This document shows, in pieces, positions 18,212 to 20,810 of a stretch of DNA of 64,000 nt. The notes beneath the pieces are model-generated. The model saw nothing but the letters and a program-made list of their open reading frames with translations, ran no database searches and had not been told where the DNA came from. Position numbers and translations under genes: made by a program. The stretch is from NCBI GenBank assembly GCA_964016885.1, contig OZ024750.1:48112001-48176000 (forward strand). Direction: 5' to 3'. Every line of letters begins with the position of its first letter. The stretch's first letter is position 1. This DNA is from Eledone cirrhosa. Lineage: Eukaryota.

Positions 18212-18506
18212 TATATATATATATATAAATATATATATATATATATATATATATATATATATATATATATATATATATATATATATATATATATATATAT
18301 ATATAAATATATATATATATATTTATATATATATATATATATATATATATATTTATATATATATATATATATACATATATATATATATATATATATATAT
18401 ATATATAAATATATATATATATATATTTATATATATATATATATATATATATATATATATATATATATATATATATATATATATATATATATATATATAT
18501 ATATAT
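18212..18506. repeat. (TA)n microsatellite, representative of dozens of long (TA)n/(CA)n/(GA)n tracts in the window
   Basis: Directly visible; such tracts flank most PLE-derived insertions. Confidence 0.98.
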
Positions 18507-20810
18507 AAGTATGTACACGTACATACATATATGTATACCGACGTACAGTAGTATGTATATATATATATACATACATGCACACATATATATATGCACGTAT
18601 GGATTCACCGAACATTTATTATAATGCTCGGTGTGTTTGTAAACAAACATCCCGTATTAAGCCGTAGTGTCTAGCAACCACCGTTGCTCGTTTGTTCAAC
18701 ACTGACAAAGGAACGCTGTACTAGTTTCAAGCTTGTTAGCTATCGTCAGCAACGTATACCTTCTTGCCAGATTGTTGAACGTATATACTTACCTTATGCA
18801 TATTAACGGCTGAGTAGCCCAATTTGCATATCGAGTGGGTTAATCGGCCGGGTGCACCGAAAACGATAAACGGAAAAAATGAAACGATATTTCATTTCCC
18901 ACTCTTAGTACGGCTGTTACTTAAATATAAGTATGTACACGTACATACATATATGTATACCGACGTACAGTAGTATGTATATATATATATACATACATGC
19001 ACACATATATATATGCACGTATGGATTCACCGAACATTTATTATAATGCTCGGTGTGTTTGTAAACAAACATCCCGTATTAAGCCGTAGTGTCTAGCAAC
19101 CACCGTTGCTCGTTTGTTCAACACTGACAAAGGAACGCTGTACTAGTTTCAAGCTTGTTAGCTATCGTCAGCAACGTATACCTTCTTGCCAGATTGTTGA
19201 ACGTATATACTTACCTTATGCATATTAACGGCTGAGTAGCCCAATTTGCATATCGAGTGGGTTAATCGGCCGGGTGCACCGAAAACGATAAACGGAAAAA
19301 ATGAAACGATATTTCATTTCCCACTCTTAGTACGGCTGTTACTTAAATATAAGTATGTACACGTACATACATATATGTATACCGACGTACAGTAGTATGT
19401 ATATATATATATACATACATGCACACATATATATATGCACGTATGGATTCACCGAACATTTATTATAATGCTCGGTGTGTTTGTAAACAAACATCCCGTA
19501 TTAAGCCGTAGTGTCTAGCAACCACCGTTGCTCGTTTGTTCAACACTGACAAAGGAACGCTGTACTAGTTTCAAGCTTGTTAGCTATCGTCAGCAACGTA
19601 TACCTTCTTGCCAGATTGTTGAACGTATATACTTACCTTATGCATATTAACGGCTGAGTAGCCCAATTTGCATATCGAGTGGGTTAATCGGCGGGGTGCA
19701 CCGAAAACGATAAACGGAAAAAATGAAACGATATTTCATTTCTCACTCTTAGTACGGCTGTTACTTAAATATAAGTATGTACACGTACATACATATATGT
19801 ATACCGACGTACAGTAGTATGTATATATATATATACATACATGCACACATATATATATGCACGTATGGATTCACCGAACATTTATTATAATGCTCGGTGT
19901 GTTTGTAAACAAACATCCCGTATTAAGCCGTAGTGTCTAGCAACCACCGTTGCTCGTTTGTTCAACACTGACAAAGGAACGCTGTACTAGTTTCAAGCTT
20001 GTTAGCTATCGTCAGCAACGTATACCTTCTTGCCAGATTGTTGAACGTATATACTTACCTTATGCATATTAACGGCTGAGTAGCCCAATTTGCATATCGA
20101 GTGGGTTAATCGGCCGGGTGCACCGAAAACGATAAACGGAAAAAATGAAACGATATTTCATTTCCCACTCTTAGTACGGCTGTTACTTAAATATAAGTAT
20201 GTACACGTACATACATATATGTATACCGACGTACAGTAGTATGTATATATATATATACATACATGCACACATATATATATGCACGTATGGATTCACCGAA
20301 CATTTATTATAATGCTCGGTGTGTTTGTAAACAAACATCCCGTATTAAGCCGTAGTGTCTAGCAACCACCGTTGCTCGTTTGTTCAACACTGACAAAGGA
20401 ACGCTGTACTAGTTTCAAGCTTGTTAGCTATCGTCAGCAACGTATACCTTCTTGCCAGATTGTTGAACGTATATACTTACCTTATGCATATTAACGGCTG
20501 AGTAGCCCAATTTGCATATCGAGTGGGTTAATCGGCCGGGTGCACCGAAAACGATAAACGGAAAAAATGAAACGATATTTCATTTCCCACTCTTAGTACG
20601 GCTGTTACTTAAATATAAGTATGTACACGTACATACATATATGTATACCGACGTATATATGTATATATATATATAAATACATGCACACATATATATATGC
20701 ACGTATGGATTCACCGAACATTTATTATAATGCTCGGTGTGTTTGTAAACAAACATCCCGTATTAAGCCGTAGTGTCTAGCAACCACCGTTGCTCGTTTG
20801 TTCAACACTG
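18505..20810 (-). repeat. Tandem array of 422-bp units (5 full plus about 190 bp), each full unit with a hammerhead ribozyme: retrozyme-like
   Basis: Unit anchors at 18507, 18929, 19351, 19773, 20195, 20617. Only about 2 substitutions seen among full units. Confidence 0.92.
18714..18754 (-). ncRNA. Minimal type I hammerhead ribozyme (repeated at 19136-19176, 19558-19598, 19980-20020, 20402-20442)
   Basis: cgttg-CTGACGA-t-agct-aaca-agct-t-GAAAC-ta-GTA-cagcg; all core nucleotides intact, palindromic helix III ACTAGT. Confidence 0.9.

Follow-up and report, generated by a model that had tools for sequence, protein, structure and literature searches.

The array of 422-bp repeats at 18503-20810 of the 64-kb stretch of DNA analysed here (the window) is, as a whole, best explained as a young non-LTR retrozyme insertion copied into (TA)n by a PLE enzyme acting in trans, a reading to which we give a probability of about 80%. 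The array appears to be one young insertion within a large, dispersed family of such retrozymes. By sequence, this 422-bp family agrees with non-LTR retrozymes in the traits that can be tested in this way, and our verdict is that it is a putative non-LTR retrozyme for which the genomic evidence of mobilisation by PLEs is unusually clear. The evidence comes from the array and its hammerhead ribozyme, from the ends and inversions of the insertions across the genome, and from the variants that their units share.

The array and its hammerhead ribozyme

Tandem Repeats Finder gives a period of 422, 5.5 copies, and 99% matches for the array, and a unit-by-unit comparison agrees with the initial annotation, which described five full near-identical units plus a partial one. 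The array is a single 5'-truncated arm of 5.46 units on the minus strand, and the inverted second arm that is usual in the family is absent. Unit 3 carries two substitutions (19693 and 19743), and the other full units (1, 2, 4, and 5) do not differ from one another. We number the unit in the ribozyme sense from the cut, so that u1 is window position 19140 on the minus strand. A cleavage-to-cleavage monomer, the predicted 422-nt RNA, then lies at 18719..19140, and further monomers at 19141-19562, 19563-19984 (which carries two private substitutions), and 19985-20406, all on the minus strand. The last unit (20407..20810, minus strand) is 5'-truncated, covers unit positions 15-422, and has a 4-nt deletion and two substitutions. 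The unit has a GC content of 0.38 and no LTR that we could see by inspection. It had been described as devoid of coding capacity, and indeed the longest ORF beginning with ATG in a dimer of the unit spans 51 aa of low complexity. The monomer RNA is predicted to be strongly self-paired, with folding z-scores of -7.7 for the linear and -7.8 for the circular form, and of -5.4 when the TA-rich part is left out.

The 3' end of the array (minus sense) adjoins a (TA)n target tract of about 290 bp (18212..18502), as previously noted. This end (18503..18506, minus strand) corresponds to u213-216, which we call the "short" family end, overlaps the target by a few bases, and, by analogy with the anole PLE (PMC11167929), is likely a start of reverse transcription. 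A second segment, the "tail" (u216-275; 18866..18925, minus strand), is found in the window array only inside units and is the alternative 3' end at other loci; it contains a long hairpin that is common to a sister family. A short hairpin whose loop contains the "short" end (18919..18932, minus strand) is common to the 465-bp sister family. On the other side lies the 5' flank (20811..21500), which is single-copy between 20811 and 21300 except for a 44-bp dispersed repeat; we found no second copy of it in the assembly. A contig of one other sample (runs X1 and X2) spans 20810-21500 with one difference and runs left of 20810 into 716 further letters unlike the array. Since this contig lacks the array at 20810 and the flank is single-copy, the window array is likely polymorphic. 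The same contig, together with the presence of near-identical units beside a 290-bp (TA)n tract, could also be taken to mean that the array is mis-assembled, with a wrong number of units or a false join at 20810. We regard this as very improbable, given that distinguishing variants are present among the units, that single-arm insertions with a non-TA 5' flank are seen again at other loci, and that the family-level pattern is independent of the window locus.

The minus strand has five hammerhead cores, at 18749-18719, 19171-19141, 19593-19563, 20015-19985, and 20437-20407, i.e., one in each of the five full units. Including the extended helix I, the copies of this type I hammerhead cover 18694..18780, 19116..19202, 19538..19624, 19960..20046, and 20382..20468 (minus strand). 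A strict type I descriptor has 5 matches in the window and none in any of 100 dinucleotide shuffles. From the hammerhead consensus, self-cleavage is predicted after GUA (18718..18719, minus strand) and every 422 bp thereafter, which corroborates the initial placement of the cut between 18719 and 18718 and of the palindrome ACUAGU in helix III. The Rfam hammerhead models have no match in the window at the gathering score or at E-values up to 10, and the sub-threshold matches to TA-rich miRNA models were dismissed as effects of composition.

The ribozyme was said to be an intact minimal type I hammerhead, and here only the type stands. Helix I begins with 6 bp, which an internal loop separates from another 3 bp, and these are followed by 14 bp; helix II consists of a U.U and 3 bp closed by the loop UAACAA; in helix III, a single A-U pair carries a palindromic loop. 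According to the accessible text of Cervera 2014, the canonical metazoan type I form has a helix I of 6 bp, a helix II of 4 bp, and a helix III of 1-2 bp with a palindromic loop, and requires a second copy for helix III to fold, whereas the minimal PLE-type form has a helix II of 7-8 bp, a helix I of 4-5 bp, and a poorly defined loop 1. The helix II of 3 bp plus U.U and the helix I of 6 bp with its long extension rule out the minimal form, and by these helix lengths the motif is a canonical metazoan type I hammerhead. The computed cost of forming helix III in the monomer is about 5 kcal/mol, and an intermolecular duplex gains 4.8. The weak helix III and the U.U pair predict slow cleavage of the monomer, for which there is a precedent in the axolotl.

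The structure is retained among copies. In an alignment of 50 rows, representing 49 distinct copies (one per locus), the pairing is kept in 98.2% of the cells, against at most 41% when the partners are slid. One pair of helix I alternates between U-G, G-U, and A-U, with both sides changed in 14 of the 49 copies; these two-sided changes at a single pair probably amount to few events. The structure is better supported by two other families, of 465 and 311 bp, in which the loop UAACAA and a palindromic helix III are preserved and helices I and II have been exchanged with the pairing retained. The loop UAAYAA is thus common to the three families, between which helices I and II are fully exchanged, and helix II starts with U.U in the 422-bp unit and with G-C in the 465-bp family. 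The ribozyme structure is conserved and covarying, both among the copies and across the three families.

Dispersed insertions with two 3' ends and inversions

The 31-nt ribozyme core has 2,710 exact matches in the 3.0-Gb assembly and the 15-nt tail motif has 24,634, whereas the reversed controls have none. Searching the genome with the unit gave near-identical copies on many contigs among the 40 candidates scored out of 344, as anticipated by the initial annotation, which predicted dispersed arrays in (TA)n; occurrence at a single locus is ruled out by the 2,710 exact cores. Identity varies among the subfamilies, from 100% to about 70%, and public contigs of three organisms contain the unit. 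We mapped the arms of the insertions in 75 stretches, of which 15 were the best matches, 40 were picked by the core, and 20 by the tail motif, these last two sets being taken in positional order on one contig (C1). Four loci (the window, C551, C11, and C4a) have one haplotype in common, and young arms reach up to 7.5 perfect units.

The 3' ends of the insertions fall at one of two sites about 59 nt apart, u213-216 ("short") or u273-275 ("tail"), and both overlap the (TA)n by a few bases. Among the arms with at least 88% identity, 90 out of 103 end at either site (52 tail and 38 short), a count that includes the 20 loci picked by the tail motif. (TA)5 follows 48 of 53 tail ends, and in our first set (TA)n was found beside 10 of the 13 short and 12 of the 13 tail ends. 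The 5' ends, in turn, are scattered over the whole unit. They show no excess near the cut, with 7 of 97 arms at unit positions 1-20 where about 9.7 are expected, and the four inspected arms that had been scored as starting at u1 all carry a few bases upstream of it. It was proposed that the 5' end of the window array, 14 nt past the predicted cut, is related to the cleavage site. The position is right (u15), but the offset is a matter of chance.

Many insertions have two arms. We found 55 adjacent inverted (head-to-head) pairs, in 35 of which both outer ends could be classified, the remaining 20 having an end that is old, broken, or rearranged. The classifiable pairs combine a short with a tail end in 34 cases, two short ends in one case, and two tail ends in none. 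At 88% identity or more, all the 26 inversions are of the mixed type (24 out of 24 without two duplicates in L039). Several apparently single-arm insertions hold a vestigial second arm of 5-30 nt, and others, the window array among them, join directly to non-TA sequence. The only target-site duplication that we observed, of 9 bp, is at L037:7248-9822, where an array is inserted in the ORF of a Hydra-type PLE; (TA)n targets mask duplications. This array is partly duplicated in inverted form, along with the endonuclease.

The 465-bp sister family has the same two 3' ends and both end hairpins (alignment score 57, equalled by 0 of 1,000 shuffles), and in 11 of 20 loci both ends are visible on opposite strands. 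This family (L216:6280-7850 and L229-L248) is young, with 96-99% identity, has the same loop 2 and helix III, and a tail of about 70-75 nt. The 311-bp family is a third tandem family with a canonical hammerhead, present in six copies at one end of L157; its loop is again UAACAA, its palindromic helix III is a different one, and it terminates in (TA)n.

This anatomy fits the literature on PLEs point by point, and mobilisation by a PLE enzyme in trans is therefore very likely. In the accessible text of Craig 2021 (PMC8557442), the traits of PLEs include 5' truncation, partial tandems, an inverted 5' copy, a bias for (TA)n, and a one-sided tail of 30-40 bp. Microsatellite (TA)n targets are a trait of Hydra/Naiad/Neptune-type elements. 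The anole PLE protein cleaves AT-rich DNA on both strands and extends them, and reverse transcription begins at two internal positions of the RNA; the distance between these gives the tail, a feature considered unique to PLEs (Frangieh 2024, PMC11167929). The youth and dispersal of the family and the 34 mixed inversions out of 35 are thus in line with the initial proposal of a recent integration into (TA)n by a PLE enzyme in trans.

The genome also contains long older arrays, of 18 units in L047 and at least 32 in L049-L050, whose units diverge by 4.5% and 7.7%, respectively. They have mosaic shared variants and a similarity that does not decay with distance, which suggests a satellite-like or multi-template origin. 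Could all arrays then be satellites, i.e., single PLE-type insertions enlarged locally by unequal DNA exchange? Li et al. 2026 (bioRxiv 10.64898/2026.07.22.740005) propose such growth for some vertebrate retrozymes, and the mosaic variants of these two arrays, as well as the duplicated whole insertions in L039, would agree with it. However, the young arrays retain the exact family ends, have haplotypes common to oppositely oriented arms, and almost all their private variants are limited to one unit. As a general explanation, this kind of growth is thus quite improbable, and it was probably restricted to the old long arrays.

The RNA template of the young insertions

The mechanism that we propose for the young retrozyme insertions draws on the anole work. 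A PLE reverse transcriptase-endonuclease acting in trans would copy the non-coding hammerhead repeat into (TA)n. By analogy with the anole PLE, the enzyme would nick both strands of the (TA)n and start reverse transcription at two internal RNA sites, one per strand, here some 215 and 275 nt beyond the cut. The arms cross the cut site without scars. The two cDNAs would join head to head, or one arm would be lost, as in the window array. As for the RNA, transcripts of the arrays would be cut by the dimer-assisted hammerhead and a host ligase would close the 422-nt circle. We lean slightly towards this circle, produced by hammerhead cleavage and host ligation, as the template; being circular, it would allow each arm to run several rounds. 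The complete scenario, in which the PLE enzyme primes twice at fixed internal sites on the ribozyme-made circle and rolls on both strands, is put forward more tentatively.

The junctions at the cleavage site have the exact length in 161 out of 162 cases, and the arm starts lie mid-unit, which together leave two candidates for the template, a circle closed by precise ligation and a multimer that was not cleaved. This bears on another possibility, that the template was a ribozyme-cut linear monomer and the reverse transcriptase, on reaching the 5' end, jumped to a 3' end, either that of the same molecule or that of another monomer. Such jumping accounts for both uniform and mosaic arrays without a ligase. 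Yet, a template-jumping scar was found at only 1 of the 162 junctions, the cut shows no excess of 5' ends (the 7 of 97 arms mentioned above), and the four inspected u1 arms all extend upstream of it, so we consider it improbable.

Distinguishing a circle from a multimer depends on how variants are distributed among units. In 18 young multi-unit insertions, and leaving the TA-rich part aside, we counted 31 substitutions present in all the covering pieces, 8 in some of them, and 86 private ones. Many of the 31 are not new but common to a whole subfamily. In one insertion (L046), two variants found in it alone among the 18 are present in 9 of 9 pieces across both arms. Because these insertion-specific variants fill all units on both arms, they point to a monomer bottleneck. 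Uniform arrays would equally arise by read-through of an already uniform array, and the mosaic variants of the old long arrays also speak against such a bottleneck.

This read-through is the main alternative: an uncleaved linear transcript of an existing multimer would be the template, and the ribozyme would be a passenger or act at another step. We find it less probable than the circle, though clearly more so than monomer jumping. The anole PLE inserts without ribozyme cleavage, its ribozyme mutants still insert, and unprocessed RNA is its main substrate (Frangieh 2024, PMC11167929). Partly shared variants occur in 5 of the 18 insertions, and while one of these (L019) is an alignment artefact, those at L018, L020, L024, and L032 are consistent with a multimeric template; one uniform master could also yield the window array, C551, C11, and C4a with their common haplotype. 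On the other hand, copying a multimer cannot carry a new variant to every unit, yet the L046 pair is in all nine pieces. Moreover, the long arrays of the genome are heterogeneous (4.5-7.7%) instead of homogenised, and the ribozyme structure is retained in three families. Among the dimers of Xenopus retrozymes tested by Li et al. 2026 (bioRxiv 10.64898/2026.07.22.740005), 1 out of 9 cleaved. Finally, we saw no imprint of A-to-I editing in the copies: among 173 singletons, there are 19 A>G and 14 T>C changes (p = 0.49).

Candidate drivers and related elements

The genome has young PLE families with long open RT-EN frames, and a protein search of the atlas confirmed a PLE protein type. We sampled five autonomous families from the window and from database proteins: one Poseidon-like (ORF of 782 aa), two Hydra-type, and two Neptune-type (ORFs of 775 and 777 aa). 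The clade labels follow the linker motifs of Craig 2021, with CxCX5C for Hydra-1 and CX4CXXC for Neptune-1, while Hydra-2 and Neptune-2 were labelled by eye from the same motifs and "Poseidon-like" means that neither motif is present. A young Neptune-type family is the probable driver, although we would put this at even odds only. Both of these families (L201-L220 and L249-L278) are very young, and their pLTRs have a hammerhead-like core in which U3-A8 replaces C3-G8, with a palindromic helix III. In Neptune-1, 82 of 378 pairs are identical over the RT stretch, but the ranking of PLE families by age is skewed by the choice of top matches and supports only "young". Neptune-1 targets (TA)n and forms inversions, and its tail is about 63 nt long. 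Among the 120 relatives listed for its ORF, the closest with a name is a protein of Octopus bimaculoides, with 75% identity over 57% of the query, and the other named relatives are at 45-50% identity. This is indirect support for an octopod host, and thereby for the cephalopod origin suggested in the initial annotation. One Hydra-type family (L151-L162) has a 713-aa open frame, a 27-nt tail, and a pLTR core that is only a hammerhead-like variant; canonical ribozymes are described as universal in Hydra elements in the accessible text of Craig 2021 (PMC8557442).

We found no pLTR or tail sequence common to the unit and the five autonomous families, which were sampled by searches that each scored 150 of 12,000-50,000 candidates. 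The best match of the unit, to the end of Neptune-1, is equalled by 11 of 1,000 shuffles, uncorrected for multiple tests, and a 22-nt match to the 3' UTR of Hydra-1 by 1 to 5 of 200, which is too weak in both cases given the many comparisons. The Hydra endonuclease that adjoins the unit in L037 looks like the insertion target rather than a partner.

Non-LTR retrozymes and their proposed PLE driver are already known (PMC7229834; Li et al. 2026). The metazoan ones in the main text of Cervera & de la Pena 2020 (PMC7229834), from coral, Mytilus mussel, and axolotl/newt satellite 2, resemble the 422-bp family in their non-coding tandem units of a few hundred bp with a GC content of about 38%, in their one canonical type I hammerhead per unit, and in their strongly self-paired RNA. 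The one-pair helix III with a palindromic tetraloop is like that of the axolotl HHR_Amex1, and the U.U at the base of helix II like that of HHR_Amex2. At 422 nt, our unit is slightly longer than their RNAs (170-400 nt), whose expression and circles were demonstrated, whereas the 422-bp family is known here from its sequence. The tail and inversion signature of PLEs is not described in that main text, where the word "inverted" occurs 0 times (the supplement falls outside this count). The vertebrate retrozymes of Li, Clavereau & Pollet 2026 (bioRxiv 10.64898/2026.07.22.740005) are regarded as non-autonomous derivatives of PLEs, and their general model, PLE machinery hijacked in trans, is the same as ours. 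Their evidence is co-occurrence in Xenopus and pLTR homology, whereas the 422-bp family has the PLE-type insertion anatomy and no pLTR homology that we could find. The text of that preprint contains "tail" and "inversion" 0 times, mentions no cephalopod, and leaves the mechanism open.

With the endonuclease-bearing PLEs (Penelope/Poseidon, Neptune, and Hydra), as portrayed in the accessible texts of PMC8557442 and PMC11167929, the family has in common the 5' truncation, partial tandems, inverted 5' copy, one-sided tail, microsatellite target, and a hammerhead near the end. It differs from them in the lack of an ORF and in a ribozyme that is canonical, with a long helix I, and not minimal. Its tail of about 59 nt exceeds the 30-40 of the PLE literature and is close to the ~63 nt of Neptune-1 in the same genome. 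The Chlamys elements, e.g., MRC1, are also non-autonomous PLEs with multicopy head-to-tail insertions, but share 3' sequence with autonomous partners, a match that the 422-bp family lacks in the five families sampled; canonical hammerheads were undetected in most of them, according to the accessible text of Craig 2021 (PMC8557442).

A 2020 review (PMC7761336), in its accessible text, states that retrozyme repeats show no motif indicating a helper element. We found no tail-plus-inversion signature on retrozyme arrays in the literature searched (Repbase and several supplements fall outside it), nor a cephalopod retrozyme (Repbase, Dfam, and some supplements being outside), and the accessible text of a paper on O. 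vulgaris repeats (PMC13282606) contains "ribozyme" and "retrozyme" 0 times. The PLE-unique tail and the inversion, visible here at base resolution, predict the exact start sites of reverse transcription, and the signature opens two questions to testing, namely the identity of the enzyme that moves retrozymes and whether a circle serves as their template. The family is also a large and recently active source of insertions in what is likely an octopod genome. If our interpretation is true, the arrays are a fossil record of double priming on a circle and a genomic link between the circle model of retrozymes and the tail mechanism of PLEs. These would also be the first cephalopod retrozyme families described, and the young intact Neptune-type ORFs are available for rebuilding the process in vitro.

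The window has other repeats of interest. Minimal-type hammerheads at 58543-58595 and 5632-5686 (minus strand) belong to the pLTR of the second Hydra-type PLE family, and 58500-59700 is an inverted PLE insertion with an endonuclease fragment at 59203-59682. Further hammerhead-like motifs of other PLE-type repeats lie at 17240-17280 and 29992-30038 (minus strand), and a decayed U3-A8 hammerhead-like variant at 17875-17919 (minus strand), just left of the target tract. Broken autonomous PLE ORFs, with RT and GIY-YIG pieces, are found at 25011-27414 (minus), 43307-44599 (plus), and 56292-57543 (minus). The fragmented ORFs at 49600-54100 (plus) presumably resemble Helitron Rep/helicase; a Pfam scan of one piece of them gave no match. 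Two dimers of a SINE-like repeat, of about 200 bp, adjoin (TA)n at 11028-11444 and 46990-47397.
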